64,000 bases of DNA. It comes from Halarcobacter sp. GTDB lineage: Bacteria > Campylobacterota > Campylobacteria > Campylobacterales > Arcobacteraceae. Of this stretch, positions 5,820 through 34,330 are shown one piece after another. The translations under genes were made by a program, and so were the position numbers. The stretch lies in NCBI GenBank assembly GCA_048571215.1, contig CP182352.1:3008001-3072000 (forward strand), in the 5' to 3' direction. Position 1 is the stretch's first letter. Every line of letters starts with the position of its first letter. The notes under the pieces are model-generated. The model saw only the letters and a program-made list of their open reading frames with translations. It did not search any database and had not been told where the DNA came from.

Positions 5820-5915
5820 AAGCTAAGCCTCCAATTTATATTGATTCCTAATATACTACAAAATTATTTATAAAACCATTATTTAAAAAAAATATTAAAC
5901 CTTTGAAAAATATTT

Positions 5916-5931
5916 AGGAACAGTTTTTGCA
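5916..5931 (+). promoter_or_regulatory. sigma54 promoter of the nifN operon
   Basis: AGGAACAGTTTTTGCA, GG-N10-GC. Confidence 0.88.
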
Positions 5932-5961: not shown

Positions 5962-7257
5962 ATGGAAGCACTTAGTCCCAAACCATTACAAATGAATCCT
6001 ATTAAACTTTCTCAACCAATGGGAGCTATGTTATGCTTTTTAGGTATAAAAAATTGTATGCCACTTATGCATGGTGCCCAAGGGTGTGCCTCATTTTCAA
6101 AAGTATTTTTCACAAGACATTTTAATGATCCCATTGCAGTACAAACAACAGCTGTAAATGATATAACAGCAGTTATTGATGGGGGAGATTATGCTATTAG
6201 TGAGAGTATTAAAAATATTACTAAAAAAGTTAAACCAGATTTAGTAGGACTTTTTACTACAGGTCTTACTGAAACAAAGGGTGATGATATTAGAGGTGCA
6301 TGTTTGCTTATGAAAGATATTCAAGAGATGGCATATGTAAACACTCCAGATTTTGAAGGCTCTATTGAGAGTGGATTTGCCCTTTCAATTGAAGCTGTTA
6401 TTAGTCAAATAGTTGAAAGTTCTACTGAAACTGATTCAAATAAGGCAGTAATAATCCCAAATGTTAACCTAAAACCAATAGAGGTTGAAAAGCTAAAAGA
6501 TACGGTTTCACTCTTTGGATATGAGGTTCATGCTTTACCTGATTTGAGTGACTCACTAGATGGACATCTTGGTTTAAAACAAGGAGCATTAAGTGCAGGT
6601 GGTATAACAGTTGAAGAGATTAAAAAACTTTCAACAGCTTCACTTGTTATCTCGGTTGGTTCAAGTGTAAAAAAAGCTGGGGAAAAACTTAAAGAGAAAA
6701 ATCCAAATATAAACCTTCTTCACTTTAATTCCTTAGGTGGTTTAGAAAATTGTGATGAATTTTTTAAACAATTATGCAAAATCAAAAATATTTCTAAACC
6801 CCATCCAAGCATTGTTAGATGGAGAAAAAGACTTCAAGATGCTCTACTTGATACCCATTTTGCTATTGGGAGTGCTTCTGTTATTATAGCCTTAGAGCCA
6901 GATCAAGCTTTAAGTGTAGCAAATACTATTTATGAAGCAGGGGCTAATATAAAAGCCATAATAACAACCCACAAAAACGATTTACTTGATGAGATTGATT
7001 GTGAACATCTCCAGATTGGTGACTTTGAAGATGTGGAAAAATTTATGGATAAGAGTGATGTATTAATCACAAATTTTCATGGGGAAAGATATACAAAAAA
7101 ATACAAAAAAGCGTTAATGTTAAGGGGCTTTCCTGATTATGAAGGAGTTGGTAATCAACTTAAAAATGATGTGCTTTATGAAGGAAGTGCATACATGTTG
7201 TTTGAACTTGCAAACTTAGTCAATCACCATAGATTTGGAGGTCATGATGAGCATTAA
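5962..7257 (+). CDS. nifN: FeMo-cofactor scaffold NifN
   Basis: NPIKLSQPMGA, HGAQGCASF, RHFNDPIAVQTTA, TTGLTETKGDD, LQDALLDTHF. Confidence 0.93.
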   Translation: MEALSPKPLQMNPIKLSQPMGAMLCFLGIKNCMPLMHGAQGCASFSKVFFTRHFNDPIAVQTTAVNDITAVIDGGDYAISESIKNITKKVKPDLVGLFTTGLTETKGDDIRGACLLMKDIQEMAYVNTPDFEGSIESGFALSIEAVISQIVESSTETDSNKAVIIPNVNLKPIEVEKLKDTVSLFGYEVHALPDLSDSLDGHLGLKQGALSAGGITVEEIKKLSTASLVISVGSSVKKAGEKLKEKNPNINLLHFNSLGGLENCDEFFKQLCKIKNISKPHPSIVRWRKRLQDALLDTHFAIGSASVIIALEPDQALSVANTIYEAGANIKAIITTHKNDLLDEIDCEHLQIGDFEDVEKFMDKSDVLITNFHGERYTKKYKKALMLRGFPDYEGVGNQLKNDVLYEGSAYMLFELANLVNHHRFGGHDEH

Positions 7258-7624
7258 ATTTGAAAGACCAATAGTACCAGCTATTGGACTTGGGATGTTA
7301 AATGGTAGAACAAGATTAATAGGAATTCCAAAAGATAAGGTTCAAGTTGTAATCACTCTACCTAATATTAGGGAATTTAATGAAGATTTAAAAGATGCAA
7401 TTGATTTTTTTGAAGATAGAGCAGATGCTTTTATAATCACCTCAAGTACCCAAGAGGAGTGTGAAGCTATCTTAAAAGAGTTTAATTTAAGTGATAATCT
7501 TATCTCAAGAGAATACAAAGATTTTGGAAAAACCTTCTTAATGCTTGATGAAAATAGAGCTTTAAAAAAGTCACTAATGATAATAGATACAAATTGTCAA
7601 ATTACACATAAGGATATATTATAA
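7247..7624 (+). CDS. Degenerate thiol-peroxidase (Tpx/redoxin)-fold protein lacking the peroxidatic motif
   Basis: Paralogous to the next ORF (MLNG/MLSG, QVVITLP/QVLITFP, KDFG/KDFS, KSLMIID/KSIFVVD); GGAGG RBS before ATG 7247. Confidence 0.6.
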   Translation: MSIKFERPIVPAIGLGMLNGRTRLIGIPKDKVQVVITLPNIREFNEDLKDAIDFFEDRADAFIITSSTQEECEAILKEFNLSDNLISREYKDFGKTFLMLDENRALKKSLMIIDTNCQITHKDIL

Positions 7625-8145
7625 TGGAAGTAACATATAAAAATGAAACATACACATTAGGAAAAAAAGAAAGAAAAATTGAAACTGAAGCACCTGCTGT
7701 TAGAGTAAAAATGCTTAGTGGTGAAACAAAAGTTATTGGTATGATGGCACCTAAAACTCAAGTTTTGATCACATTTCCATGTATCAAAGCTTATAATAAT
7801 GGTTTACATAATATTTTAGAAGAGTATAAATCTAAAATCATCACATATATACTAACAAAAAGCAATGAAGAGAATATAGATAAAGTAAAAGAGGCTTACT
7901 CACTTGATGAAGGATTTATCTCAAATGAATTTAAAGATTTTTCACTTAAATTTGGAGTAAATATAAATGATGAACTTTTAGCAAAATCGATTTTTGTAGT
8001 GGATAAAGAGGGAGTTATTAAATATATTGAAATCCCATCAAATATAGAAACAAGTTTTGATTTAGATAAATTTAAAGAGCAACTTGATGAGGTTGTAAAC
8101 TTTAAACAAAAAGGGCATACTCACGAAAATTGGATGGGTGTATAA
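7624..8145 (+). CDS. Tpx/redoxin-fold protein lacking the PxxxTxxC motif
   Basis: VTYKN..., AP.V, KTQVLITFP, F...FGV.I...LLAKSIFVVDKEG.I.Y.EI resemble Tpx; C-terminal GHTHENW. Confidence 0.75.
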   Translation: MEVTYKNETYTLGKKERKIETEAPAVRVKMLSGETKVIGMMAPKTQVLITFPCIKAYNNGLHNILEEYKSKIITYILTKSNEENIDKVKEAYSLDEGFISNEFKDFSLKFGVNINDELLAKSIFVVDKEGVIKYIEIPSNIETSFDLDKFKEQLDEVVNFKQKGHTHENWMGV

Positions 8146-8594
8146 TGGCTATTTCAGATGAGCTAAGAGAATGGATTGTAGCCAATGATTATGATATTAA
8201 TGATTTAAATGTTCAAGGTAAACATGGCAATTCTGCTGTTATGAAAGCAGCAAGAGAAGGTAATGTAAAACTAGTAAAAGAACTAATTGGCTTAGGAGCA
8301 GATCTTGATTTGAAAAATGTTGATGGAAACTCAGCACTTTGGAATTCATGTTTTGCAAACTCTTATGATTGTTTTCATGCACTTATAGATTCAGGTATAG
8401 ATATTAACTCAGAAAATGTAAATGGAGTAACGGCACTTATGTACTGTGCAAGTGCAGGGAAAGAGGATTTTGTAAAACTACTAATCGATAATAAGGCAAA
8501 AACAGAAGTTGAAAATCTTGATGGATTTAAAGCAATAGATTTAGCAGTAACTCCTAAAATTTTTAAAATGCTAAAGAATGCAAGAGTTTCATAA
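8145..8594 (+). CDS. Ankyrin-repeat protein
   Basis: GNSAVMKAA, DGNSALWNS, NGVTALMYC, DGFKAIDLA repeats; TAATG overlap with the upstream gene. Confidence 0.9.
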   Translation: MAISDELREWIVANDYDINDLNVQGKHGNSAVMKAAREGNVKLVKELIGLGADLDLKNVDGNSALWNSCFANSYDCFHALIDSGIDINSENVNGVTALMYCASAGKEDFVKLLIDNKAKTEVENLDGFKAIDLAVTPKIFKMLKNARVS

Positions 8595-9834
8595 TAAAAC
8601 AAATATAACTTTAAAAAATAGCTTCAGTCAAACTCAATTTATTGATTGGAGAACTCAACCTAAAGCTTATAAAGAATATCCAAAGTTTTTTAGAAGATTT
8701 AACCTTGATGACTATGAAGAGTTAAAATTTATAAAAAACTTTGGGAAAATCACTTTTACTAAAAAATATGCCCAAGAAGAGGTAAACTTAAGAACAAATC
8801 CAAGTGCTGGTGGACTATATCCTTGTGAAGTATATATACAGATTAGGGGAATAAAAGGGGTTTTATCTGGTATTTATCATTATGAACCTCTAACAAATCA
8901 ACTTACTTTGATTCATGAGTTAAGTCTTGATGGACTTGAACCCTATTTTAAAGATTTAAAACAACAAAAATTTATTTTCTTACTTAGTTGTGCTTATTTT
9001 AGAAGCTCTTGGAAATATGAAAAAAGAGCTATAAGATATCTACTTTTAGATACAGGTCATCAAATTGCTTCTATTTATAGTGCCTTAAAACTTGCAAAAA
9101 TAGAAAATACTTTATGTTTTAATTTTGATAAAAAGCTTTTAAACAAGGATTTTGGTTTTGAAGATAGTGAATTCTTTTTATCTTCCCTTCTTAGCAGTTC
9201 ACATAAAGATTATGAATGTAAAAAAAGTTTAAGAGAAAAAATAGTTAGTGTTTCACCTTGCGATTATCAGATAAAAGAGCCTTTTATAGAAGAGTTTTAT
9301 AGAAAATCTTTAGAAAAAAGTGCAGAAAATATAAACTTAGCAAACTTTCTTAATGATTTAGATGAGGATCAACTTCAAAAAGCTATTGACAATAGGCGCT
9401 CAATAAGAGCTTTTAAAAAAGAGTCTATAAAAAAAGAGGAATATGAGTTTATAATAAAAGATATATTCGAATATGCAAAATCTTTTAACATAGAGATATA
9501 TCTAATAAACAACAATATAGAAACTATACAGAAAGGATGTTACAAAAATGTAACATTGCAAGAGAAGGGCGATTTTCAAGAGCTTGCAACAAAACTTGCA
9601 TTTAATCAAAAGCTAGCAGGGAATAGTGCCTTTACCCTAATATATACCTCAAATGAGAAAGAAAACTATATAAGAAATTATATTTTATGTGGTTTTTTAG
9701 CACATATTATTCATCTTAAAGCGACTCATCTAAAGCTTGGGTGTAGTGGCATCGGGGCATATTTTGATGACGAATGTAAAAGATTTTGCAAAACACAGAA
9801 TAATATACTTTACCTACAGGCGGTTGGAAAATGA
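8578..9834 (+). CDS. SagB/ThcOx-type nitroreductase-family flavoprotein (two domains)
   Basis: LRTNPSAGGLYPCEVY, GIYHY, RSSWKY..RA.RY.LLDTGH, RRSIRAF, SGIGAYFDD. Confidence 0.85.
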   Translation: MQEFHNKTNITLKNSFSQTQFIDWRTQPKAYKEYPKFFRRFNLDDYEELKFIKNFGKITFTKKYAQEEVNLRTNPSAGGLYPCEVYIQIRGIKGVLSGIYHYEPLTNQLTLIHELSLDGLEPYFKDLKQQKFIFLLSCAYFRSSWKYEKRAIRYLLLDTGHQIASIYSALKLAKIENTLCFNFDKKLLNKDFGFEDSEFFLSSLLSSSHKDYECKKSLREKIVSVSPCDYQIKEPFIEEFYRKSLEKSAENINLANFLNDLDEDQLQKAIDNRRSIRAFKKESIKKEEYEFIIKDIFEYAKSFNIEIYLINNNIETIQKGCYKNVTLQEKGDFQELATKLAFNQKLAGNSAFTLIYTSNEKENYIRNYILCGFLAHIIHLKATHLKLGCSGIGAYFDDECKRFCKTQNNILYLQAVGK

Positions 9835-10130
9835 GTAAGGAAACATATGTAAATCTATTTAAAAAATATAACTTATACAGAAGTGATATTTATATGTTAA
9901 CCAAAATAAATACAGCAGATATATTTTTTCTCTTTGAAGATGTTTGTGAAGAGCTAGTTGAACAAAGAGCGATAAATAGACAGTTACCACCTGAGTTTAT
10001 AAACAATGCAAAACTATTTGTAGGACAAAATACTTTTATAAATGTATATTTTGCAGATATTGATAATAGAGCTTTCTTTTTAAGTGACCTTATTGATTTT
10101 TTAGCCTTGATAAGAAGTAAACAAAAATAG
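9831..10130 (+). CDS. Hypothetical protein
   Basis: 99-aa ORF, ATGA overlap with the upstream gene. Confidence 0.65.
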   Translation: MSKETYVNLFKKYNLYRSDIYMLTKINTADIFFLFEDVCEELVEQRAINRQLPPEFINNAKLFVGQNTFINVYFADIDNRAFFLSDLIDFLALIRSKQK

Positions 10131-10140
10131 TATTTGTTTA

Positions 10141-10156
10141 TGGAACAACATTTGCA
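10141..10156 (+). promoter_or_regulatory. sigma54 promoter of the nifX operon
   Basis: TGGAACAACATTTGCA, GG-N10-GC. Confidence 0.9.
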
Positions 10157-10187: not shown

Positions 10188-10583
10188 ATGAGTAATATAA
10201 AAATAACATCGAATGATTCTACTGAAGGGTCAATCAAAGTAGCATTTGCAACTAAAGAATTAGAGATGATAGATTCTCACTTTGGAAGTGCAAAACAGTT
10301 TGCTGTTTACGACGTAAGCAAAGACTCAATTAGTTTAAGTGAAATCAGAAAAGTGGAAGAAAAAGACACTGATAAAACTGTTGCTTTACTAAGTGGTGTG
10401 GATATAGTTTACTTCACAAACATTGGTGCTATTGCAGCAGCAAAACTTATTAACTCTGGAATATTTACTATCAAATATAAAGAAGAAGTGAGTATCAAAG
10501 AGGAGCTGGATAAATTAAAAGAGATGTTAAATACTAATCCTCCACCTTTTATCAAAAAAATAATTGCAAAAAAGGCTGCATAA
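10188..10583 (+). CDS. nifX: NifX (NifB/NifX family FeMo-co precursor carrier)
   Basis: IKVAFAT..IDSHFGSAKQFAVY, IGAIAAAKL, NPPP; start moved to ATG 10188 (GAGGA RBS, downstream of the promoter). Confidence 0.88.
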   Translation: MSNIKITSNDSTEGSIKVAFATKELEMIDSHFGSAKQFAVYDVSKDSISLSEIRKVEEKDTDKTVALLSGVDIVYFTNIGAIAAAKLINSGIFTIKYKEEVSIKEELDKLKEMLNTNPPPFIKKIIAKKAA

Positions 10584-11020
10584 TGGAACACAATTTTAAA
10601 GAGATTTTTATGACTACACTTGTTGGTCAAGTAAGAGCACTAGACCAATTTGGTACTTGGGCAAATAAATCTGATGAAGATATTTTAAGTGAAAAATATG
10701 TTAAATCAAAAGAACAATTAAAAGAGATACCAATTATTGCAGATATTGATGAGATGCAAACACAAGATATTAGACTTATTTACCAAGCAGTAGCTTTAGC
10801 TTTTGAGAAGATTACAGGGATAATGTGCTCAGTAGTTATGGAGATGAGCCATGAAGGTTTTGGTAGAGTGGTTGTATATACTGATAAAATTGTATTATGC
10901 ACAAAATCGTTTAAAGATGCCCATAGATTTTCATTTAGAAGTTTTGAAAAACTAGAGGAAGAGGGAGAGAAGAACCTCGCAAAAGCGATAGAGATTTATA
11001 ACAAATATAAAAACGTATAA
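10583..11020 (+). CDS. NifX-associated nitrogen fixation protein (DUF269-like)
   Basis: QVRALDQFGTW, IPIIAD, MSHEGFGR, DAHRFSF. Confidence 0.88.
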   Translation: MEHNFKEIFMTTLVGQVRALDQFGTWANKSDEDILSEKYVKSKEQLKEIPIIADIDEMQTQDIRLIYQAVALAFEKITGIMCSVVMEMSHEGFGRVVVYTDKIVLCTKSFKDAHRFSFRSFEKLEEEGEKNLAKAIEIYNKYKNV

Positions 11021-11034
11021 GGAGAAAATAAAAA

Positions 11035-11556
11035 ATGGCAAGTGTAGGAATTTTTTGTGGAACAGCTGGTGGTACTTCTATGGTAGTTGCAGAAGCATTA
11101 GCAGAGGCATTTGAGGTAGAAGAGGATGCTTTAATAAATATGGAAGAAGATTTTGATGATATTGAACAATTTGAAGATTTTGATGTTCTATTCATCGGAA
11201 GTTCAACTTGGGGACAAGGAGATGTTCACTTTTCTTGGGTAGATGCTTTATTAGAAATGGAAGATGAAGAAGTTGATTTATCTGGAAAAACTGTTGCATT
11301 TTTTGGAGCAGGAGATTGTAAAAAACATGGAGAGCATTTTTGTTCAGCTTTAGGAAAACTTCATAAAACATTTACAGATCTTGGTGCAAAAGCTGTAGGT
11401 TTCGTAGATGCAAGTGGTTATAACTATGAATATTCATTAGCTGAAATGGATGGTAAACTTTGTGGTTTAGCAATAGACCAACACAATGAAGAAGAAAAAA
11501 CAGAAGAGAGAGTAGAAAATTGGGTCAACCAATTAAAAAAGGAAATCTCTTTATAA
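11035..11556 (+). CDS. Long-chain flavodoxin (NifF-like electron donor)
   Basis: GTAGGTS FMN loop, GSSTWGQG, FGAGD, GLAIDQ; very acidic. Confidence 0.9.
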   Translation: MASVGIFCGTAGGTSMVVAEALAEAFEVEEDALINMEEDFDDIEQFEDFDVLFIGSSTWGQGDVHFSWVDALLEMEDEEVDLSGKTVAFFGAGDCKKHGEHFCSALGKLHKTFTDLGAKAVGFVDASGYNYEYSLAEMDGKLCGLAIDQHNEEEKTEERVENWVNQLKKEISL

Positions 11557-11569
11557 TAAAGGATTTATA

Positions 11570-11908
11570 ATGAAATCTTTAAATGATTTTGAAGAGTGCA
11601 GAGATGCAGAAGATTTTTTCAAATTTTTTGATATTAAATTTGATCAAAGCTTAGTAAATGTAAAAAGATTCCATATGATGAAAGAGTATGGAAATCTTAT
11701 TAAAAGAGGTATGAATAATATTGAAGGTGAAGATAAAAAACTTGAGTTTTTAAAATTTTCTCTTCTTAGAGTTTATGGAGACTATGTAAATGGTCATGCA
11801 CCAAGTGCAGCAGATGTTTGGAACATGTACGAAACTGGTAAACTTGAAGGTTGTTCTTCATGTGCTCCAGCTACAGGAAGTTCTCAAGGGGGAAGCTGTG
11901 GGTGTTAA
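11570..11908 (+). CDS. nifW: Nitrogenase-stabilizing protein NifW
   Basis: AEDFFKFFDIKFD..LVNVKRFHMMK, L...Y.DY. Confidence 0.85.
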   Translation: MKSLNDFEECRDAEDFFKFFDIKFDQSLVNVKRFHMMKEYGNLIKRGMNNIEGEDKKLEFLKFSLLRVYGDYVNGHAPSAADVWNMYETGKLEGCSSCAPATGSSQGGSCGC

Positions 11909-12302
11909 TCATAAAGATATCGTTGATTCAGAAACTTTTTTACATGATAATGTAACGGCTGGTAGATCTGGAAAAGATGAAGATGAAGCAAAATTTGGTA
12001 TAGGACAAAAAGTAAAACTTATCAAAGATGTTGTAAATGATGGAACATATCCACATGCAGCTATTGGTACCCTTATGATGCCTGCTGGCTCTATTGGGTA
12101 TATCAAATCTGTTGGTGAGTTTTTACAAGTAATCAGAGTATATGAAGTTCATTTTTTTGGTGTAGTAGATACACCTGTAGAAATAGTTGGCTGTAGAGAA
12201 CATGAACTAGAAGCTATGGAAGATTACAGAGATGAAGTTGAAGAAGAACTTGAATTTATGAGAAAACATAGAGAAAAGTACTACAACAAAGAAAATAAGT
12301 AG
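11898..12302 (+). CDS. nifZ: NifZ
   Basis: F.IGQKVK..NDGTYP..G..GYIKSVGEFLQ..YEVHF..VGCREHEL; probable GTG start at 11898. Confidence 0.9.
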   Translation: MGVNHKDIVDSETFLHDNVTAGRSGKDEDEAKFGIGQKVKLIKDVVNDGTYPHAAIGTLMMPAGSIGYIKSVGEFLQVIRVYEVHFFGVVDTPVEIVGCREHELEAMEDYRDEVEEELEFMRKHREKYYNKENK

Positions 12303-12375
12303 GATTGAATAAAACCAAGTCAAATGAAAGAATTCAGAAGAATTCTTTCGTATGGCTTGGTTTTGTTACCAATCT
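12302..12375 (+). other. Long imperfect intergenic stem-loop
   Basis: Arms ...AATAAAACCAAGTCAAATGAAAGAATTC / GAATTCTTTCGTATGGCTTGGTTTTGTT..., loop AGAA, three U-G pairs. Confidence 0.8.
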
Positions 12376-12393
12376 AAAAAAAAGGAGAAGAAT

Positions 12394-12738
12394 ATGGCAA
12401 GAGTTATTTTCATGCATTTTGATACTGCAACTGACGGTGTTTATGATGCAAAAATCGGTGAACCTATTGTTAGGTTAGCAAAAGAGAAAGGTGTTCCAGT
12501 ACCTTCAGATACTACAGATTATTCTAAAAGTTTAATTTATGTTGAGAATCTTTCAGATGAAGAACCTACAAGTTATATGGAAGATGAAGAATTAGATGTA
12601 TTAGTTGAACTTGGAGCTATTTCAAAAGAAGAGGCAGACCAATGTCAACAATTTACAATCAGCCCAAAAGTTAGAATTGCACCAATGATGTTAATCAAAG
12701 GTGATATCTTAGTTAAACCATATAAATTAAAAAAATAA
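12394..12738 (+). CDS. FeSII (Shethna II)-like ferredoxin-fold protein without cluster cysteines
   Basis: AAGGAG RBS; LAKEKGVPVP, E.DVL.ELG.I.KEE, PKVRIA, DILV align by eye to FeSII; ligand Cys absent. Confidence 0.7.
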   Translation: MARVIFMHFDTATDGVYDAKIGEPIVRLAKEKGVPVPSDTTDYSKSLIYVENLSDEEPTSYMEDEELDVLVELGAISKEEADQCQQFTISPKVRIAPMMLIKGDILVKPYKLKK

Positions 12739-12747
12739 GGAAAAAAA

Positions 12748-13044
12748 ATGACAACTAGAGTAGAAATAATTAACGATTTTTTAGCAATTAATGTTAAACC
12801 AGGAAGTACAATTCAAGATGTAGTTGAAGCTTCAGGTTCAGCTTTACCATTTGGATGTAGAGATGGTGAATGTGGTACTTGTGTAGTTGAAGTTGAACAA
12901 GGTATGGAATTTTTATCTGAAATCAATGAAAAAGAAGTAAAAGTAATCAAAGAAGCATGCGCTGGAACTTGTACTGATAACACAAGACTTTCATGTCAAA
13001 TGAAAATCGTTAAACCAAACGGTGTAGTTAGAATTAAGTACTAA
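12748..13044 (+). CDS. [2Fe-2S] ferredoxin
   Basis: PFGCRDGECGTC and RLSCQ. Confidence 0.93.
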   Translation: MTTRVEIINDFLAINVKPGSTIQDVVEASGSALPFGCRDGECGTCVVEVEQGMEFLSEINEKEVKVIKEACAGTCTDNTRLSCQMKIVKPNGVVRIKY

Positions 13045-13097
13045 AAAGTATACAGTTTTCACCCAAAATATACAATTATTTTGGGTAGAATACTGTT

Positions 13098-14348
13098 ATG
13101 GCACCAACATTAACAACATCAGTTGCTCAAAAGCAAAATTTAAATTTATCACTAAAATTGTGGCTTCCAATGCTACAATCATCTTTACAAGACCTAGAGA
13201 AACATCTAAAAAATGTATCCTATGAGAATCCATTTTTAGAAATAAAAAAACCAAAAGAATTTTATAATAATTTTATGCCACAAGGAACAAGTGGAGAGTT
13301 CATTGAATCTATGGCTTTATATGCTGAATCATTAAATGATGTGATAACTGATCAAATCTGTGCACCAAACTTTCCAACACCAAATTCACAAAAAGTTGCA
13401 TTTGAAATATTATGCGATTTAAATGAAGAGGGATATTTTGAAGGGGATATAGAAGAAATAGCCTATAATTGTGGAGTTTATAAAGAGTATGTGGAATCGA
13501 TTAGACAAAGATTTTCAAGACTTGAACCAAGTGGAGTAGGGGCTATAAATTTAGCTGAATCATTTTTATTTCAACTTGATGCTTGTGATAAACAAATAGA
13601 TGACGAACTATATAATTTTATTAAAAAAATCATAAAAGATATAGCTCATTTAGATAAATATGCAGCACATCATAGATTTGATGATGCAAAAGATGTAATA
13701 AAATACTTTAATAATCCCCCCGCAATAGATTATTTAAACACTAATATACAAGTAATCCCTGACTTCTTTGTGGAGATTGGTGAAGATATAAATATAAAAA
13801 TCAATAATGCCTATTATCCAGATATAGAGGTAAAAGATCCATTTAATTCTAAAAATGAATCAATAAAAGAGAAACTAAAAGAAGCAAGGGATTTAGTAAA
13901 CCTCTTAAATCTTAGAAAATCAACCCTATATAAGATAGTACTTTTAATTGTTGAAAAACAAATTGGATACTTTGTGGGTGGAGAGTTAAGACCTTATTCT
14001 ATGCAAGAGTTAGCAGCAGAATTAGGTTTTGCAGAATCAACAATAAGTAGGGCAGTTGCAAATAAATATATTGAATGTAGTAACCTAGGTGTTCTTCCAT
14101 TAAAACACTTCTTTACAAATGCAGTCAATAACAAAGACTTATCATCTTCACAAATAAAAAGTTATATTAAAAGTTTAGTAGATTATGAAAATAGGGAAGA
14201 GCCCTTAACAGACCAACATATATTAGATTCAATTCAAGATAAATTTGACTTAAAGATGGTTAGACGAACAATTACAAAATATAGAAAAATGCTAAATATC
14301 CCATCTTCAAAAGAGAGAAAAAAACTCTACAAAGTAGAAAATTTATAA
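13098..14348 (+). CDS. rpoN: RNA polymerase sigma-54 factor
   Basis: Q/L-rich region I, ENPFLE, ESTISRAVANKY, RpoN box VRRTITKYR. Confidence 0.95.
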   Translation: MAPTLTTSVAQKQNLNLSLKLWLPMLQSSLQDLEKHLKNVSYENPFLEIKKPKEFYNNFMPQGTSGEFIESMALYAESLNDVITDQICAPNFPTPNSQKVAFEILCDLNEEGYFEGDIEEIAYNCGVYKEYVESIRQRFSRLEPSGVGAINLAESFLFQLDACDKQIDDELYNFIKKIIKDIAHLDKYAAHHRFDDAKDVIKYFNNPPAIDYLNTNIQVIPDFFVEIGEDINIKINNAYYPDIEVKDPFNSKNESIKEKLKEARDLVNLLNLRKSTLYKIVLLIVEKQIGYFVGGELRPYSMQELAAELGFAESTISRAVANKYIECSNLGVLPLKHFFTNAVNNKDLSSSQIKSYIKSLVDYENREEPLTDQHILDSIQDKFDLKMVRRTITKYRKMLNIPSSKERKKLYKVENL

Positions 14349-14377: not shown

Positions 14378-15037
14378 TTATATTTCCCCTAGAGTTCCAC
14401 CTATTCTTGCAAAAAGAATTAAATATGCCATATCAACTGATCTATCAGCAATTTTTTCATTTTTTCTTAATACATTTAAAATCTTAGTAAATTTACCAAA
14501 ATCTTCAATTTTTTTATCTAAAGAGAAAATATGACTTTGGAAAATATTATATTGTTCATCAGTTCTTTTTTCTGCTTCAATAACTTTATCAAAATTTGTT
14601 TTTACCTCATCCTCTTCACACTCAATCATGGCAATAACACCTTCTAAACACTCTATTGTAGATTTATGTAAAGGCATTGCATATTTTTCCAAATCATCTT
14701 TGCTTATACAGTTGCAATAAACTTCAAAAGTTTTTATATAACTTCTTGTATTTGCAGCTGCTCTTTGAAGTTCATTTGAAACTTTAAAAAAAGATACAAC
14801 ATGTCTTAAGTCTGTAGCTTCGGGGGTAAAAAGTGCTAAGGTTTTTATAACAACATTATCCATAACAACTACTTTTTGAGAGATGTTATTTAGCTTCTCT
14901 TCTGCATTAGATAACATAGAAACATCACATTCTTTTAAGGCTTCTAAAATAATCTTATTAGAAGAGAGGATATTTTTAGCTATCTGTAGTACCACACTAT
15001 TTATTATCTCTAAGTGTTCTTCATATTTTTTTAACAT
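14378..15037 (-). CDS. phoU: Phosphate signalling protein PhoU
   Basis: LALFTPEATDLR, EKIADR; last gene of the pst operon. Confidence 0.85.
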   Translation of the reverse strand: MLKKYEEHLEIINSVVLQIAKNILSSNKIILEALKECDVSMLSNAEEKLNNISQKVVVMDNVVIKTLALFTPEATDLRHVVSFFKVSNELQRAAANTRSYIKTFEVYCNCISKDDLEKYAMPLHKSTIECLEGVIAMIECEEDEVKTNFDKVIEAEKRTDEQYNIFQSHIFSLDKKIEDFGKFTKILNVLRKNEKIADRSVDMAYLILFARIGGTLGEI

Positions 15038-15819
15038 TAACCAAATCTCCCTGTAATGTAATCTTCTGTTTGTTTCATTTGAGGATTAATAAAAATCTCA
15101 TCAGTTCTGTTATACTCAATAAGCTCTCCAAGATACATAAATGCTGTAAAATCACTTATTCTAGATGCTTGTTGCATATTGTGAGTAACAATTGCGATAC
15201 TAACTTCTTTTCTTAGCTCAACAATCAACTCTTCAATAGCAGCAGTTGATATTGGGTCAAGGGCAGATGTTGGTTCATCAAACAATAACAAATCAGGTTT
15301 AACAGCAACAGCCCTTGCAATACACAGTCTTTGTTGTTGTCCACCACTTAGTCCCATTGCATTATTGTTTAATCTATCTGAGACTTCGTTCCATAAAGCA
15401 CTACCTTTTAAGGCTTCTTCAACTTTATCCTTCAACTCTGTTTTATTCTTTACACCCGCTATTTTCAGACCATATGCTACATTATCAAAAATACTCATAG
15501 GGAAAGGAGTTGGTTTTTGAAATATCATCCCAACTCTTTGTCTAAGTTTAATAAAATGATTCTCTTTTTTTACATCTAAAATATTTTCCATTTTTTTTGT
15601 TTTAGAATTTAAAAGCATCAATTTACCCTCATATTTATTATTTGGATATAGATCATGAATTCTATTTAATGACCTAAGTAGGGTTGACTTACCACATCCA
15701 CTAGGACCAATAAGTGCTGTTATTTTCCCCTTTTTAATTGGTAAATTAATATCCTTTAAAGATTTTTCAGCTGAACCAGCATAGGTAAAACTGAAATTTT
15801 CTACATTCATAATTGACAT
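15037..15819 (-). CDS. pstB: Phosphate ABC transporter ATPase
   Basis: [40 protein letters not shown]. Confidence 0.95.
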
Positions 15820-15824
15820 AAATA

Positions 15825-16631
15825 TTATCCTTTATTTCTTGTTATATATCTTCCCATAAGATTAATTAGTAAAACTAAAACTGTTAAAATAAATGAAGCT
15901 GCCCATGCTAAATCCCTACTTGCTTGCACTGGGTCATTTGCTAAGTCATATATACTTACAGTTAAAGAGGGGAAAGATTCTGTTAAATCTAAAGTGAAAT
16001 AGTTACTTGTTCCACTTGTAAAAAGTAAGGGTGCAGTTTCTCCGATGATTCTTGCAAAGGAGAGTAATAATCCTGTCATAATACCAACTTTTGCAGCTTT
16101 AATGATAATATCTAAAATAACTCTATATTTACTTGCACCAATTGCTATTCCAGCTTCTCTAAGTTCAGTTGGAACAAGACTTAGCATATTATCAGTAGTA
16201 TTAATTACAATTGGTATCATCATTATTGCTAAAGCTATACTTCCAGCAAATCCACTTGAACCACCACTTGGAATAACAATAACAGCATAAACAAATGCAC
16301 CAATTACAATTGATGGAGCACTAACCATAATGTCATTTAAGTCTCTAACTAAAACTGTAAACCTACTGTTATATCCATACTCTTGAAGAAAAATACCTGC
16401 TAAAACTCCTATTGGAATACCAATCAATGAAGCTAATCCAGCCATAATAAATTGACCAATAATCAAGTTTCTTAATCCATTTGAGATTAAATCATCAATA
16501 AATAAACCAAAATGAAAAGATGTAATACCTTTTAAAAATAAGGTTATTAATATCCATGCTAAAAAAGCAAGCCCAATAAGAGCTGACAATATTGCTAAAG
16601 ATAATACAAATTTATTTATCAATAGTCTCAT
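15825..16631 (-). CDS. pstA: Phosphate ABC transporter permease
   Basis: [20 protein letters not shown]. Confidence 0.93.
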
Positions 16632-17545
16632 TTTTTAACCCTTTTTAGAAAATAAAATTTGGCAATAGAGATAACAATAAAACTAATAATAAATAGTAAA
16701 AATGCCAAATAAAATAAAGATGAAGCTCCAAGTCCCGAGGCTTCTCCAAAATTGTTAGCAAGTGCGACAGGTATAGAGATGGTAGGTGAGTTAATAGCTT
16801 TTGGAAGTTCAAATACAGAACCAATCAAAAAGGCTACTGCCATAGTTTCTCCTAAAGCTCTTCCTAATGCCAAAATAATTGAACCTATAATACCAACCTT
16901 TGAATAAGGGAATATTACATCTTTTATAACTTCAAACTTTGTTGCACCTAAAGCATAAGCAGATTCTTTTAATATATCAGGAGTAGTATTCATACTATCT
17001 CTGGTAATTGCAGCCATAAAAGGTAAAATCATAACTCCAAGAACCAATCCCGCTGTTAATAAGGAGACTTGATATCCACCCACAATATCTTGTATTATAG
17101 GAGCAAAGTAAAATAATCCCCACATACCAAATATAATACTTGGGATTGCTGCTAACAATTCTATTGCAATTCCTACAATATTTGAGATGTTTTTGGGAGC
17201 AATTTCTGCTAAGAATACAGCAATACCCATAGAGATAGGTAAAGCAAATATGATTGCAATTAATGTTGACAATAAGGTACCAATTATAGGGATTAAACCA
17301 CCATAAATTGTTTTTGTAGGTTCTTGATCTGGGAAAAGACTATATTCACTTACACTTCCACGCGTAGCCATTTCCTCTTTTGTCAAAGGAACCTCTTGTT
17401 GCCATGAGGGGTCTGTAATAAAACCTAAACCAAATTCATTGATTGCATCTTTTGAAGATATAAAAAGAGTAATAAATATACCAATTAGTATTATTAGTAC
17501 AATTGAGGCGCTTAATAAAGAGATGTTTTTAAAAAATTTTTCCAT
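16628..17545 (-). CDS. pstC: Phosphate ABC transporter permease
   Basis: ELLAAIPSIIFGMWG, GRALGETMAV. Confidence 0.93.
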   Translation of the reverse strand: MEKFFKNISLLSASIVLIILIGIFITLFISSKDAINEFGLGFITDPSWQQEVPLTKEEMATRGSVSEYSLFPDQEPTKTIYGGLIPIIGTLLSTLIAIIFALPISMGIAVFLAEIAPKNISNIVGIAIELLAAIPSIIFGMWGLFYFAPIIQDIVGGYQVSLLTAGLVLGVMILPFMAAITRDSMNTTPDILKESAYALGATKFEVIKDVIFPYSKVGIIGSIILALGRALGETMAVAFLIGSVFELPKAINSPTISIPVALANNFGEASGLGASSLFYLAFLLFIISFIVISIAKFYFLKRVKK

Positions 17546-17567
17546 ATTATACCCATAATTTAAGATT

Positions 17568-17590
17568 ACATAAGCCCAAAAGGCTTATGT
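17568..17590 (-). other. Stem-loop between pstS and pstC (stabiliser or partial terminator)
   Basis: ACATAAGCC-CAAAA-GGCTTATGT perfect 9-bp inverted repeat. Confidence 0.6.
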
Positions 17591-17597
17591 CTTAAAA

Positions 17598-18596
17598 TTA
17601 CATTACGCCTTTTTCAGACCAGTAATTTCTAATTTTTTTAGTTAAAGAATCTGGAAGAGGAACATATCCTAATTCACTAGCTAAGTTTGCACTATTTTTA
17701 AATGAATAATCATAAAAAGCAGTAACTTTTTTATCAACTGCAACTTTCTCTTTTGGTAAAAGGATAAATGTAGCAGCTACAATTGGATATGCATCTTTAC
17801 CTGCAGGATCACCAATTACAGCAAAAAAATCTTTTTTAGGATCTAAATCTGCTTTAGCAGCAGCTGCTTGAAATGCTTTTAATTCAGGTTTAATATATGT
17901 ACCCTCTTTGTTTTCAACAACAGCCATATCTAAACTATTATTTTTTGCATCTGCATAATCAATATATCCAATAGAGTATGGAGTTTGTTTAACTAAAGCA
18001 GCTACACCTGTATTTGTTTTACCACCAATATGATGATCTCCAGGCCAATTTAAAGATTTTTTAGTTCCAAAATCTTTTCTCCACTCTTTAGAGATTTTGC
18101 TTAGATAATAAGTAAAGTTAAAAGTTGTTCCTGAACCATCTGCTCTGTGAACAAAAGTTAATTTTTTATGAGGTAATTTAACATTTGGATTTGAAGAAGT
18201 GATTAATTTATTATCCCAATATTTAACTTTACCTAATGCAATTTGTGCTAATGCATCTCTACTTAAATTTAAAGTACTAACATTTGGTACATTATAACTA
18301 ATAGCAATTGCTCCTACTACAGCTGGAAATTGATAAAGTTTAGCTTCTTTTAATTGATCAGGGTTTAAAGGAGCATCAGTTCCAGCAAAATCAACTGATC
18401 TTGCTTTCATATCTGCAATACCATGAGAACTACCTTTTTTAATATAATCAACTTCAACTTGTGTAGCCGTATGGTATGCCTTAATCCAAGATTGGTACAC
18501 ACTATATGGGAAAGAAGCCCCACTACCTTTGATATCTGCTGCAGAAGCAATTGAAGATGCCAATGCCAATGCCAGTAAAAGATTTATTTTTTTCAT
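17598..18596 (-). CDS. pstS: Phosphate-binding periplasmic protein
   Basis: Signal peptide, GSGASFP, VHRADGSGTT, YPIV. Confidence 0.95.
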   Translation of the reverse strand: MKKINLLLALALASSIASAADIKGSGASFPYSVYQSWIKAYHTATQVEVDYIKKGSSHGIADMKARSVDFAGTDAPLNPDQLKEAKLYQFPAVVGAIAISYNVPNVSTLNLSRDALAQIALGKVKYWDNKLITSSNPNVKLPHKKLTFVHRADGSGTTFNFTYYLSKISKEWRKDFGTKKSLNWPGDHHIGGKTNTGVAALVKQTPYSIGYIDYADAKNNSLDMAVVENKEGTYIKPELKAFQAAAAKADLDPKKDFFAVIGDPAGKDAYPIVAATFILLPKEKVAVDKKVTAFYDYSFKNSANLASELGYVPLPDSLTKKIRNYWSEKGVM

Positions 18597-18938: not shown

Positions 18939-20105
<1,167 letters not shown>

Positions 20106-20158
20106 GCCTAAATAAAAAATAAAATAAAACATAAAATAAAAATAAAGAAGGAGATAAT

Positions 20159-20518
20159 ATGTTTGTATGTGGATACCACTTCCCAGCTGATATGGGTAAT
20201 GATGTAAGTTTTGATAAAGTAATAGAAAAAGTTGAAGAAGGTATTGAAGCTGCAGGTAAAACTGTAACTATAACAAGTGAAACTAGAGAAGGTGTTAAAC
20301 TAGAAGAGATCTCTATCCCTGAAGGTTCTTTCTTACACACTGCATTTGTTGATTATTATACTAACACTGAATGTGCAGAAAAAGATGGTTTCAAAATGGT
20401 TTATTACACAAATAAATACCAAATCTCAGAAATTTCTAAATCAGTTGATGGTGATGCAACTAAAGCTATTTGTAAAAAATTAGATGATATGAATCTATAT
20501 AGAGTAAAAGTAGCGTAA
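20159..20518 (+). CDS. Unknown 119-aa protein between nifH and nifD
   Basis: Strong AAGGAG RBS, same strand, codon choices like nifHDK (TAC, CAC, TTC, GGT, GCT). Confidence 0.88.
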   Translation: MFVCGYHFPADMGNDVSFDKVIEKVEEGIEAAGKTVTITSETREGVKLEEISIPEGSFLHTAFVDYYTNTECAEKDGFKMVYYTNKYQISEISKSVDGDATKAICKKLDDMNLYRVKVA

Positions 20519-20549
20519 GCTACCTTTACTACCCTAAGAAGGAGAAAAT

Positions 20550-22016
20550 ATGGGACCAGAGACATTAGAGAGTCTACAAAATGAAGCTATTGAGGAAGTA
20601 CTAAGTGCTTATCCTGCAAAAGCTGCAAAAAACAGAGCAAAACACTTAGGTGTTGATGCACCAGAAGGTGTAAAAGGTGCTTGTGATAAAACTAGAAGTA
20701 ATAAACAAACTGTACCAGGAGTAATGTCGCAAAGAGGTTGTGCTTATGCGGGTTCTAAAGGGGTTGTTTGGGGACCAATTAAAGATATGATTCATATCTC
20801 ACATGGACCAATTGGATGTGGACAATATTCAAGAGGTGGGAGAAGAAACTATTATATCGGTACAACTGGTGTTGATACTTTTGTTACAATGAACTTCTCA
20901 ACTGACTTTAACGAAAAAGACATCGTATTCGGTGGAGATAAAAAACTTAAAAAAGCTTTAGAAGAAATTGATGATTTATTCCCATTAAACAATGGTATCT
21001 CAATTCAATCTGAGTGTCCAATCGGTCTAATCGGTGATGATATTCAAGCGGTTGCTAAAGTACATAAAAAAGAAACTGGTCATCAAACAATTGCTGTTTC
21101 ATGTGAAGGATTTAGAGGGGTTTCACAATCTCTTGGTCACCACATTGCAAATGACATGATTAGAGACCACGTTATGCCAGATACATCACACAGAAAAGAT
21201 TTCGAATCAACTGAATATGATGTAGCTATTATTGGGGATTATAACATCGGTGGTGATGCTTGGGCAACAAGAATCATCTTAGAAGAAATGGGATTAAGAG
21301 TAATTGCTCAATGGTCTGGGGATGCAACTTATAAAGAGTTAGCAATCGCTCCAAAAGCAAAACTTAACTTACTTCACTGTTATAGATCTATGAACTATAT
21401 TTCAAGACATATGGAACAAGAATTCGGTATACCTTGGATGGAATATAACTTCTTTGGACCAAGTAAAACAACTGAGTCTATTAGAAAAATCGCTTCATTC
21501 TTTGACGAAGCAATTCAAGAAAAAGCTGAAGCTGTTATTGCTAAATATACTGCTATGACTGATGCTGTTATTGCTAAATATAAACCTTTATTAGAGGGTA
21601 AAAAAGTTATGCTTTACGTTGGTGGATTAAGACCAAGACACGTTATTGGTGCATACGAAGATTTAGGAATGGAAGTAATCGGTACTGGTTATGAGTTCGC
21701 TCACGGTGATGATTATAAAAGAACTAAAGAAGATATTGAAAGATCTACTTTAATTTATGATGATGCTAATGAGTACGAATTAGAGCAATTCGTTAAGAAA
21801 TTGAGACCAGATTTAGTTGCTGCTGGTGTTAAAGAGAAATATGTATTCCAAAAAATGGGTCTACCATTTAGACAAATGCACTCTTGGGACTACAGTGGTC
21901 CATACCATGGATACGATGCGTTTGCAGTTTTTGCAAAAGATATGGATTTAGCTATGAATTCTCCTGTATGGGATCATACTACAGCTCCATGGGATAAAGA
22001 AGTAGAGGGAGCGTAA
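20550..22016 (+). CDS. nifD: Nitrogenase MoFe protein alpha chain
   Basis: RGCAYAG, GPIGCG, SECPIG, SLGHH, LHCYRS, GGLRPRH, QMHSWDY. Confidence 0.98.
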
Positions 22017-22017
22017 T

Positions 22018-23565
22018 ATGCAAGACGTAGAAAACATAGTAAACGGACAAAAACTATTTTTAAAACCTGAATATCAAGAAGTTTTAAAAAACAAAAAACA
22101 ATTCGAAGGTGCAATGGGTGCAATTGATACTGCCAAAGTTGATGAAATTCAAGAATGGACTAAATCTTGGGATTATAGAGAAAAGAATTTAGCAAGAGAA
22201 GCAATTACTGTTAATCCAGCTAAAGCTTGTCAACCTCTAGGTGCTGTAATGGTTGGTCTTGGTTTTGAAAACACTATGCCATATGTACATGGTTCACATG
22301 GTTGTGTTTCATACTTTAGAACTTACTTTACAAGACACTTTAAAGAACCAACTCCATGTGTTTCTGACTCAATGTCTGAATCTGCAGCGGTATTTGGTGG
22401 TTTAGCAAATATGAAGGATGGTTTAAGAAACTGTAACGCTTTATATAAGCCTGATATGATTGCAGTATCTACTACATGTATGGCAGAAGTTATCGGTGAT
22501 GACTTAAATGCATTTATTTTAGGTGCAAGAGAAGAAGCTGAAGGTGAATTAGATAATATCGAAATCCCTTATGCTCATACTCCATCATTCGTAGGTTCTC
22601 ATATTACTGGTTATGATAATATGATGAAATCTATCTTAGAGCAATTAAACCCAACTAGATCAGAAAGAGTTGAAGATGAGGAAAGAATCAATATCATTCC
22701 TGGTTTTGAACCATATTTAGGGTCTTTAAAAGAGATTAAAAATATTGCTAAAATGTTTGGTGACAAAATTGTTATGTTAGGTGACCATGAAGAGCAATGG
22801 GATACTGGAGCTGGTGAATATAAATTATATGCTGGTGGTACAACTATAGCTGATACAAAAACTGCTATCAATGCTAAAGCTACTATCTCATTACAAAAAT
22901 ATTCAACAATAGCAACTGCTAAAACTATTAAAAACAAATGGAAACAAACTTTTGAAACTTGTAATCCAATTGGTTTAAGTGGTACTGATGCTTTTGTTAT
23001 GAAACTAGCTGAATTAACTGGTAAAGAAGTTCCTGCTGAACTTAAAAACCAAAGAGCTAGACTTGTTGATGCTATGCAAGATTCTTATCCATATATGCAT
23101 GGTAAGAAAATTGCAATCTGGGGAGATCCTGACTTTTTATTAGGTATGGTTTCTTTCTTAGTTGAAATGGGAGCAATTCCAACTCATGTTGTATGTCATA
23201 ATGCACCAAGAAAAGGTTGGGAAGCAGAGATGAGAGCAATCTTAGATAAATCAAACAGATCTGACGAGTGTAACATCTGGCCAGGTAAAGATTTATGGGC
23301 ATTAAGATCATTATTATTCACAGAACCAGTTGATTTCATGATTGGTAACGTTTATGGTAAAGAACTTTACAGAGATACAAAAACTCCACTTATCAGAATT
23401 GGTTTCCCAATTTTTGATAGACATCACTTACATAGATACTCTATGAGTGGTTATGAGGGTGCAATTAACTTATTAACTTGGATTACTAATGGTGTTCTTG
23501 ACCAATTAGATGAAGAGACTAAAGATATAGGTGAAACAGATTACTTCTTTGATTCAGTAAGATAA
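22018..23565 (+). CDS. nifK: Nitrogenase MoFe protein beta chain
   Basis: NPAKACQPLG, HGSHGCVSY, TTCMAEVIGDD, HTPSF, FPIFDRHH. Confidence 0.98.
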   Translation: MQDVENIVNGQKLFLKPEYQEVLKNKKQFEGAMGAIDTAKVDEIQEWTKSWDYREKNLAREAITVNPAKACQPLGAVMVGLGFENTMPYVHGSHGCVSYFRTYFTRHFKEPTPCVSDSMSESAAVFGGLANMKDGLRNCNALYKPDMIAVSTTCMAEVIGDDLNAFILGAREEAEGELDNIEIPYAHTPSFVGSHITGYDNMMKSILEQLNPTRSERVEDEERINIIPGFEPYLGSLKEIKNIAKMFGDKIVMLGDHEEQWDTGAGEYKLYAGGTTIADTKTAINAKATISLQKYSTIATAKTIKNKWKQTFETCNPIGLSGTDAFVMKLAELTGKEVPAELKNQRARLVDAMQDSYPYMHGKKIAIWGDPDFLLGMVSFLVEMGAIPTHVVCHNAPRKGWEAEMRAILDKSNRSDECNIWPGKDLWALRSLLFTEPVDFMIGNVYGKELYRDTKTPLIRIGFPIFDRHHLHRYSMSGYEGAINLLTWITNGVLDQLDEETKDIGETDYFFDSVR

Positions 23566-32782: not shown

Positions 32783-34330
32783 ATGGCACTATTTGACAGA
32801 CCAGAATGTGCAAGCTGTTTAACTGTAAAAGAACTTACAACTTTATATGAAATTGCATCAATTATCTCAAATCATTATGATTTAGATACATCATTAGAAA
32901 AATCTATAAAAATATTAAAAAATTCATTGCACTTAACAAACTGTACAGTGCATGTACTAGAAGATGAAGAATTAAAAGTATTTGCTTCTGTTGATTTAAG
33001 CAGAATACAAAAAAAACTTGCAACTTATAAAATTGGAGAAGGGGTAACAGGAATTGCTGCTCAATCAAAAGAACCTGTAGTTGTAGAAAATATCCATAGC
33101 GATTCATTATTTCTAAATAAATCTGGGAAAAGAGATTATACAAATCTATCATATGTAGCAGTACCTATGATAGTTGATAATGAAATGATAGGAGTTTTAG
33201 GAGCAACCTTAACTAAAACTACAGAGATTGGATTTGAGGACTGTGTTAGAATTTTGACTATTATTAGTTCTATTTTTGCACAAACAATTCACTCTTATCA
33301 ACTTAATAAAAATGAGAAAGAAAGATTAAAAGAATTGAAACTTTATTATAAAATGGAATGGGATTCAAAAGTTCACAACTTTGGAGATATCATTGGTGAT
33401 AGTCCAAAAATGCAACAAGTTTTCCAAGTAATACAAAGAATTGCCCAATCAGATGTTACAGTTTTAGTACGAGGGGAAACGGGTACGGGTAAAGAGTTAG
33501 TAGCCGCAGCAATTCACAAAAGAAGTAAAAGACAAGATGAACCTTTTATAAAATTAAACTGTGCAGCTATTACAGATACCCTTCTTGAAAGTGAACTTTT
33601 TGGTCATGAGAAAGGTGCTTTTACAGATGCAAGAGAGACTAGAAAAGGAAGATTTGAACTTGCAGATGGGGGAACTTTATTTTTAGATGAGATAGGTGAT
33701 ATCTCAGCTTCTGCACAAGTAAAACTTCTAAGGGTTTTACAAGAAAGGGAATTTGAAAGAGTTGGTGGAAGTAAAACTATAAAAGTAAATGTAAGATTAG
33801 TAGCAGCAACCAATAGAAATCTTGAAAAAATGGTTGAAGATGGGGAATTTAGAGAGGATTTATATTATAGATTAAATGTAATACCTATTGATTTACCACC
33901 AGTAAGAGAAAGGGGAGATGATATTAGACAACTAGTTGAATTCTTCTTAGAAAAAGCTATTAAAAACCATAAAAAGATGGTTAAAATAACAGATGAAGCT
34001 ATGGATATACTTATGAACTACCCATGGCCTGGGAATGTAAGAGAGCTTGAAAATACTATTGAAAGAATAGTATTGATGGGGAATGAAGATGGAATCAACA
34101 AGTTTGATATGATTCTTTTATTGCCTGCACTAAATGATGAAAAATTTAAAAAAGAGTTCAAATCTATACCTTTAGAGAATAAAACCTTAGAGGAGTTAGA
34201 AAAAGAAGCAATTATAAATGCCCTTCATAATAATAACTTCAATCAATCCCATGCAGCCAAAGAGTTAGGTATAACCCTTAGACAAATTGGATACAAAATC
34301 AAAAAATATGGGATAGAAAATGATATATAA
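32783..34330 (+). CDS. nifA: nif-specific sigma54 activator NifA
   Basis: GAF (GEGVTG), AAA+ (GETGTGKE, ESELFGHEKGAFTDA, WPGNVRELEN), HTH T.RQIGYK. Confidence 0.9.
   Translation: MALFDRPECASCLTVKELTTLYEIASIISNHYDLDTSLEKSIKILKNSLHLTNCTVHVLEDEELKVFASVDLSRIQKKLATYKIGEGVTGIAAQSKEPVVVENIHSDSLFLNKSGKRDYTNLSYVAVPMIVDNEMIGVLGATLTKTTEIGFEDCVRILTIISSIFAQTIHSYQLNKNEKERLKELKLYYKMEWDSKVHNFGDIIGDSPKMQQVFQVIQRIAQSDVTVLVRGETGTGKELVAAAIHKRSKRQDEPFIKLNCAAITDTLLESELFGHEKGAFTDARETRKGRFELADGGTLFLDEIGDISASAQVKLLRVLQEREFERVGGSKTIKVNVRLVAATNRNLEKMVEDGEFREDLYYRLNVIPIDLPPVRERGDDIRQLVEFFLEKAIKNHKKMVKITDEAMDILMNYPWPGNVRELENTIERIVLMGNEDGINKFDMILLLPALNDEKFKKEFKSIPLENKTLEELEKEAIINALHNNNFNQSHAAKELGITLRQIGYKIKKYGIENDI

Follow-up and report, generated by a model that had tools for sequence, protein, structure and literature searches.

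FeSII, the Shethna II protein, is the textbook O2 switch of nitrogenase. According to the accessible text of one paper its [2Fe-2S] cluster is taken as the sensor, the trigger and the release of the complex with nitrogenase are still open, reduced resting FeSII is held by two latches (D44:K70 and R92:A122), and the bound state keeps only the E71:R99 bridge (PMC11754109); a large redox-driven change in FeSII is questioned in the available part of another (PMC11301756). The former paper, in the same sections, lists contacts to NifH by R72, N73, K76, E41, E118 and A122 and to NifD by K63 and R24, has K70 also touching the enzyme in the complex, and states that other members of the family lack the helix hN2. 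K14 and K15 are important by mutagenesis (as cited in PMC3045800, from the portion available). From R. capsulatus, FdC is required for N2 fixation by the Fe-nitrogenase, its role being unsettled and a direct donation to nitrogenase thought not to occur, and FdD (FdV, fdxD) is a [2Fe-2S] ferredoxin implicated in O2 protection of the Mo-nitrogenase (PMC10936413, as far as its accessible sections go). Our literature search, with most subscription papers and all supplements outside its scope, found nothing on a cluster-less FeSII or on FeSII in the Campylobacterota. Here we describe a 114-aa protein from the nif region of a Halarcobacter sp. that descends from FeSII and has lost all four ligands of the iron-sulfur cluster.

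The gene and its nif operon

The stretch of DNA analysed (64,000 nt of contig CP182352.1, hereafter the window) carries the gene within a run of nif genes. The features referred to below, in window positions, are:

10140..10156, + strand: sigma54-like -24/-12 site 5' of nifX, from a pattern scan with what we take to be the consensus
10188..12302, + strand: upstream run of nifX-like, DUF269 (NifX-associated), flavodoxin, nifW and nifZ genes
12302..12375, + strand: long RNA hairpin in the spacer between nifZ and the 114-aa gene (-39.3 kcal/mol, z -10.3)
12383..12387, + strand: ribosome-binding site AGGAG, 6 nt 5' of the ATG at 12394
12394..12738, + strand: FeSII (Shethna II)-family ORF, predicted to be cluster-free (ATG 12394, stop 12736-12738; 114 aa, pI 4.7, net charge -7)
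12499..12531, + strand: old cluster-binding loop (residues 36-46), some 2 residues shorter than its counterpart in four-Cys orthologues, with Tyr at ligand 2 and Ser at ligand 3
12556..12666, + strand: FeSII-type N-loop, residues 55-91, with helices 64-73 and 78-87, E66 (FeSII E71), E65 (at FeSII K70) and the near-invariant C84
12748..13044, + strand: intact [2Fe-2S] ferredoxin, 98 aa (Fer2 E 2.6e-12), nearest solved relative R. capsulatus FdC (9i2a, E 6.7e-14)
13052..13096, + strand: RNA hairpin in the spacer between the ferredoxin gene and rpoN (-20.5 kcal/mol, z -6.1)
13098..14348, + strand: rpoN (sigma54), 3' of the ferredoxin gene in 54/54 loci
19191..23565, + strand: nifH, a 119-aa ORF, nifD and nifK, encoding the candidate targets of the 114-aa protein

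All 54 fetched loci have the order nifZ, 114-aa gene, ferredoxin gene, rpoN. Relatives bear the names Arcobacter, Halarcobacter, Aliarcobacter, Sulfurospirillum and Sulfurovum. The gap between the 114-aa ORF and the ferredoxin gene is 10 nt here and usually about 10 nt among related loci, where an AG-rich ribosome-binding site similar to AGGAG is also found. nifHDK lies 6-11 kb beyond the 114-aa gene. A sigma54-like site 5' of nifX was present in 20 of the 50 valid related loci, mostly of Arcobacteraceae, where shuffled sequences predict 0.15 in all (a match at locus L009 was dropped from the counts as a slicing artefact); a strict enteric-type pattern gave no match near the operon, where the looser pattern matched. 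NifA, at 32783, scored above the NCBIfam cut-off and RpoN is also encoded within the window. The earlier note on this DNA had claimed a strong ribosome-binding site and a sigma54-driven nif run, and the sequence is consistent with both: AGGAG stands 6 nt before the start, a sigma54-like site precedes nifX, and NifA and RpoN are at hand.

The hairpin at 12302..12375 occurs once in the genome and is conserved in Arcobacteraceae, with 7 of 19 pairs changed on both sides (compensatory) in an alignment of 15 rows, one of which (L050) was mis-specified with wrong coordinates and was the source of most broken pairs. The spacer between nifZ and the 114-aa gene folds strongly (-22 or lower) in 24/54 loci, its sequence being unrelated in some Sulfurospirillum. 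This hairpin probably stabilises or segments the mRNA. In RNA data one run contained 7% of the words, and one 212-nt contig was identical to 12469-12680; since contigs cannot show transcription, it is not counted as evidence.

Several other features of the region were seen in passing. A second sigma54-like site lies directly 5' of nifN (5915-5931, +), and between nifN and nifX (8142-10130, +) stand an ankyrin-repeat gene, a SagB-like nitroreductase gene and a 99-aa ORF, kept in many Arcobacteraceae loci and missing in others. phoU-pstBACS-like phosphate uptake genes, named by eye, occupy 14378-18596 (-) between rpoN and nifH, in a slot that is variable among relatives. Three thiol-peroxidase-like ORFs of the nif region (7247-7624, 7624-8145 and 34320-34832, all +) have no peroxidatic Cys motif by eye and are possibly further cysteine-less pseudo-enzymes; the first shares 31% identity with the second, the Tpx matches of the second and third are weak and far under the cut-off, and the third sits 3' of nifA.

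FeSII ancestry and loss of the cluster ligands

The top three PDB sequence matches of the 114-aa protein were FeSII chains (phmmer E 0.005-0.075), at an identity of about 21-22%. A family HMM of 42 relatives matched FeSII chains at E 3.6e-5 to 3.2e-3, and an HMM of 18 four-Cys relatives did so at E 8e-25 to 6e-22, the next ferredoxin being FdC at 2e-7. The FeSII E-value is at least 15 orders of magnitude better than that of FdC, and on this ground descent from a tandem copy of the FdC-like neighbour was rejected. The AlphaFold2 model (pLDDT 88) has an adrenodoxin-type ferredoxin fold by Foldseek and VIA-align matches, with N-loop helices at 64-73 and 78-87, and its best structural match was the nitrogenase-bound FeSII 9cu1_N (TM 0.81, rmsd 2.2; Z 14.8 with 112 residues superposed at 2.2 Å, the next row at Z 10.4); the fit to the reduced form of FeSII was poorer (TM 0.66). 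The N-loop, with hN1 and the inserted hN2, aligned to FeSII 69-102 without a gap. FdC ranked first and FeSII fifth in a wide structural search because the FeSII representative there was the open crystal form. The protein thus descends from FeSII, as the earlier note had supposed. FdC itself has the same fold (9i2a, Z 10.1), whereas it is short, lacks helix hN2 and is a much weaker match to the 114-aa family than FeSII is.

General family profiles do not reach the protein: Fer2 (PF00111) gave no match at E up to 1, its Cys motif being absent as well, and Pfam and NCBIfam returned chance matches and no family. An Atlas search placed it in an unnamed cluster of its own (0.94) with the Fer2 clusters below 0.9. 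An Atlas cluster named Ferredoxin-5 scored 0.87, which we treat only as a lead towards FdD, itself a cluster-bearing protein.

None of the four [2Fe-2S] ligands of FeSII (C42, C47, C50 and C102) is kept in the 114-aa protein, whose single cysteine, C84, lies outside the ligand positions, as previously noted, and stands in the second N-loop helix. The motifs cited for this ORF (VPSDTTDYSKSLI and RIAPM) and for its 98-aa neighbour (LPFGCRDGECGTCVV, RLSCQ and CAGTC) were likewise found in place. Residue counts are cited from an alignment of 306 non-identical sequences for 173 close cluster-less, 28 near four-Cys and 104 distant four-Cys proteins. Cys was found at the C47 position in 0/173 close cluster-less sequences (Tyr in 148) and at C102 in 0/173 (Pro 128, Ser 44, Gln 1). 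The third ligand, C50, is kept in 134/173, and 35/173 have no Cys anywhere in the loop, which includes the state of this allele; the loss of all four cysteines proposed earlier therefore stands for this allele and for a minority of the family, while most members keep the third. From these replacements the 114-aa protein is predicted to be unable to bind a [2Fe-2S] cluster.

The gene is under purifying selection. Median dN/dS was 0.136 over 441 pairs from 62 cluster-less loci, the pairs being non-independent, compared with 0.152 for nifZ, 0.189 for nifW, 0.156 for the flavodoxin and 0.089 for the ferredoxin gene (the four-Cys form offered 3 usable pairs), and lay at 0.10-0.17 for this gene against 8 near relatives, the frame being intact. 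By region, dN/dS was 0.415 in the old loop, where the family alignment varies most, and 0.119 in the remainder, so that only the old cluster loop drifts. Invariant columns number 42 among 42 sequences down to 62% identity, and two derived residues are fixed in the cluster-less group, M98 (at FeSII Q103) in 173/173 and E65 (at K70) in 171/173. The absence of decay remarked on in the earlier note is upheld, and because the frame is intact and dN/dS is far from 1 the gene is not a pseudogene. That it is a slowly decaying relic of little function, kept by operon structure, is the least probable of the alternatives, since this conservation stands against the deletion of the gene in at least 4 lineages and the coexistence of intact, frameshifted and deleted states in one genus.

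The resemblance to FeSII is a mixed one. Both share the adrenodoxin-type fold, a long N-loop with hN2 of equal length and the E71:R99 bridge, whereas the [2Fe-2S] ligands, the K70 latch, R92, D93, K14/K15, K63, R72, N73 and K76 of FeSII are absent from the 114-aa family, which is acidic, sits in a nifW-nifZ-ferredoxin-rpoN operon and is known here from sequence and model. We do not file the protein as FeSII because, despite the FeSII scaffold, neither the ligands nor the contact residues are those of FeSII.

Distribution and history in the Campylobacterota

The phylum sample comprised 401 Campylobacterota genomes, 49 with nifD and 352 without. Full-length family matches were found in 34/49 nifD genomes (21 intact cluster-less, 1 frameshifted cluster-less and 12 four-Cys copies) and in 1/352 others, that one (G296) being a broken copy. 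No FeSII-like gene was found in 15/49 nifD genomes, and in the 14 gene-less genomes with both nifZ and the ferredoxin gene in the fetched stretch these stand 10-244 bases apart. From this distribution the gene is tied to nif but accessory. The present genome is complete, and the search turned up no cluster-bearing paralogue of FeSII in it. The genome G296 (locus L104), which lacks nifD, carries a decayed nif cluster in which stop codons interrupt nifE, nifN, rpoN and the FeSII-like gene. One genus holds the gene intact (G375), frameshifted near its 3' end (G352, locus L101) and deleted (G273, locus L085); this would be a loss in progress, with an assembly error in G352 not excluded.

The 119-aa ORF between nifH and nifD (20159-20518, +) has no Pfam, NCBIfam or Atlas match. 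It was found in 49/49 nifD genomes and the decayed cluster of G296 and in 0/351 others of the 401, and is likely a core, undescribed nif accessory gene of the phylum. It was rejected as a specific partner of the 114-aa protein, being present in all 49 nifD genomes with or without the FeSII-like gene.

Four-Cys FeSII-like ferredoxins of Campylobacterota (for example L055-L057, L063, L069; P0138, P0182 and P0255 of Sulfuricurvum/Sulfurimonas) occupy the same genomic slot, in 11 of the 12 genomes sampled. The near group, 55-68% identical to the 114-aa protein, shares its surface motifs and C84. Unlike the 114-aa protein, these orthologues keep CxxxxCxxC and RLACQ, and the distant group also keeps the equivalents of K14/K15 and K70.

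Trees of the FeSII-like gene were built with the ligand columns removed, the remaining 94-98 columns limiting resolution. The 62 cluster-less sequences formed one group inside their four-Cys relatives (support 96/81, or 88/85 on 30 rows), a single grouping that these alignments make likely but not firm. Two further cluster-less sets (P0124 and P0279-P0283) have lost more of the loop and carry Asp at C102. One origin of all cluster-less proteins was rejected (AU p 7.5e-8) and the best tree has three, the union of the two Asp sets not being rejected (p 0.22); the cluster was thus lost at least twice in the family.

Near four-Cys loci were interleaved with cluster-less ones in a tree built from NifW, NifZ and the ferredoxin (57/60 loci, 3 being left out for missing genes), and the FeSII-like gene's own alignment rejects the grouping of the neighbour tree (AU p 0.008). 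Because of this conflict the simplest reading, as far as the alignments go, suggests that cluster-bearing and cluster-less alleles were exchanged between related nif clusters, which would suggest in turn that either form can take the place of the other.

Basic residues were lost in stages. Lys or Arg stands at K14 in 92/104 distant four-Cys proteins, at K15 in 86/104 and at K70 in 102/104, and Gly at K14 in 28/28 near four-Cys proteins. The series suggests an order of change from distant four-Cys proteins with these basic residues, through near four-Cys proteins with Gly at K14, the surface motifs and C84, to loss of the cluster with Glu at K70 and Met at Q103; the surface motifs would predate cluster loss because they are common to the near four-Cys orthologues.

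Nitrogenase contacts and possible function

Since the iron-sulfur site is lost, the job of the 114-aa protein is probably to bind other proteins and not to sense O2 itself. Neither resting latch of FeSII is kept, K70 being Glu in 171/173 cluster-less sequences and R92 being Phe or Tyr in 173/173, and the K70 latch is missing from the other cluster-less lineages too. The E71:R99 bridge is kept, as E66 and R94, which are invariant in all 306 sequences (173/173 cluster-less); it is weak as a marker of FeSII because it is common in other ferredoxins too. A kept bridge with both latches gone fits a permanently folded-back protein. As specific evidence that loss of the cluster locked in the nitrogenase-bound shape, the fit to 9cu1_N was rejected, since a four-Cys orthologue model fits it as well (TM 0.85); because that model prefers the same shape, the bound shape of the models is a default of the family or of the predictor and not an outcome of cluster loss.

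The residues by which FeSII docks are largely replaced in the cluster-less family (R72 by Leu, K76 by Val, N73 by Asp, K63 by Thr, K14/K15 by Gly and Val/Ile), R72 and K76 being missing from the four-Cys orthologues also, and the dimer-contact residues K53 and D93 of FeSII are not conserved. Glu at the K70 position could weaken binding because K70 contacts the enzyme in the FeSII complex. Net charge is -7, against about +2 by eye for FeSII 1-113. On the nitrogenase side the docking residues are kept by eye (NifH E69, R101, N108 and E112; NifD H196 and D204), and the acidic patch of NifH is conserved too and is enlarged by an acidic insertion of 12 residues at about residues 83-94 (nifH 19191-20105, +), an insertion relative to Azotobacter NifH that is common to the 24 related nifH loci printed. 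The Azotobacter binding mode is not simply transferable because the basic contacts are gone, the protein is acidic and the NifH patch is acidic. A predicted complex of the 114-aa protein with a NifH dimer and a 4Fe-4S cluster (score 0.00, mark 0.32) speaks neither for nor against binding.

The explanation we prefer, which we consider to have about an even chance of being right, is that the protein binds a nitrogenase component, or an intermediate in its assembly, whatever the redox state, any gating being done by the target. The ferredoxin fold would survive as a scaffold, its N-loop folded back; the target would be either NifH or NifDK (apo or holo), possibly together with NifW and NifZ, which are co-transcribed, and the binding surface, specific to the subfamily, would be made up of residues 56-68 and 84-92 and the region of the N-terminal strand. 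Exposed metal sites may thereby be covered, as by a passive shield or an assembly helper, with any on/off control set by whether the target is oxidised, nucleotide-free or cluster-free and by neither the 114-aa protein nor the adjacent ferredoxin. Counting against this, a binder that is never switched off should inhibit nitrogenase if its target does not gate it, and the gene is missing from 15 of the 49 diazotroph genomes and frameshifted in one. In its fullest form the proposal is tentative: diazotrophs of the Campylobacterota may repeatedly have arrived at a Shethna protein without a cofactor or a redox sensor, which remains in the bound shape and shields or parks NifH or NifDK, with the trigger now lying in the state of nitrogenase and both allele types being exchanged as functional equivalents.

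The surface changes could also mean that the subfamily left nitrogenase long ago and docks by its acidic surface on a basic site of some other nif-linked protein (an electron-transfer enzyme, NifA or RpoN) as a ferredoxin decoy or adaptor, which we regard as rather unlikely. The loss of K14/K15, R72, K76 and K63, the net charge, the staged loss of basic residues with cluster loss after it, and the position of rpoN 3' of the gene-ferredoxin pair at all 54 loci argue for it. The N-loop, however, is of full length, and its sole role described in the accessible text of PMC11754109 is nitrogenase binding; nor does any candidate partner co-occur specifically, the neighbouring ferredoxin and the 119-aa ORF being found with or without the gene.

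The earlier note had proposed that redox sensing was outsourced to the 98-aa ferredoxin, so that an FdC-like sensor and the 114-aa protein would clamp nitrogenase as a pair under O2. Adjacency at 54/54 loci, usually about 10 nt apart, and the two flanking hairpins in this genome make the pair likely co-expressed. The ferredoxin is, however, in the fetched stretch of 48/49 nifD genomes, in the same place beside cluster-less genes (22, 1 of them frameshifted), beside 11/12 four-Cys copies and in all 15 gene-less genomes. Its two extra cysteines, found at 5/5 near four-Cys loci, 16/21 intact cluster-less and 4/15 gene-less ones, and lacking at 9/75 cluster-less loci (all fetched loci, repeats included), follow the lineage of the nif cluster and not the state of the FeSII-like gene. 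With the resemblance of the neighbour to FdC, which has its own N2-fixation role in R. capsulatus (PMC10936413, accessible sections), this makes the outsourced sensor improbable. Very improbable is a switch in which C84, as a disulfide or persulfide, replaced the cluster as sensor and gates FeSII-like clamping: C84 lies within hN2 and is present in 172/173 cluster-less sequences, but it is also found in 26/28 near four-Cys proteins, stands as Ala or Leu in 94/104 distant ones, a pattern expected of a small residue used in packing, and is Leu in the other cluster-less lineages.

Whichever partner the 114-aa protein may have, one locus offers a natural graded series, from four Cys with K14/K15/K70, through four Cys without those residues, to no cluster (at least twice), so that the dependence of each part of FeSII's work on the cluster becomes directly testable. 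Should the protein prove to be a protector without a cofactor, it would be easier to build into engineered nitrogenase systems; should it not bind nitrogenase, it would be a new accessory nif protein of widespread sediment and microaerobic diazotrophs.
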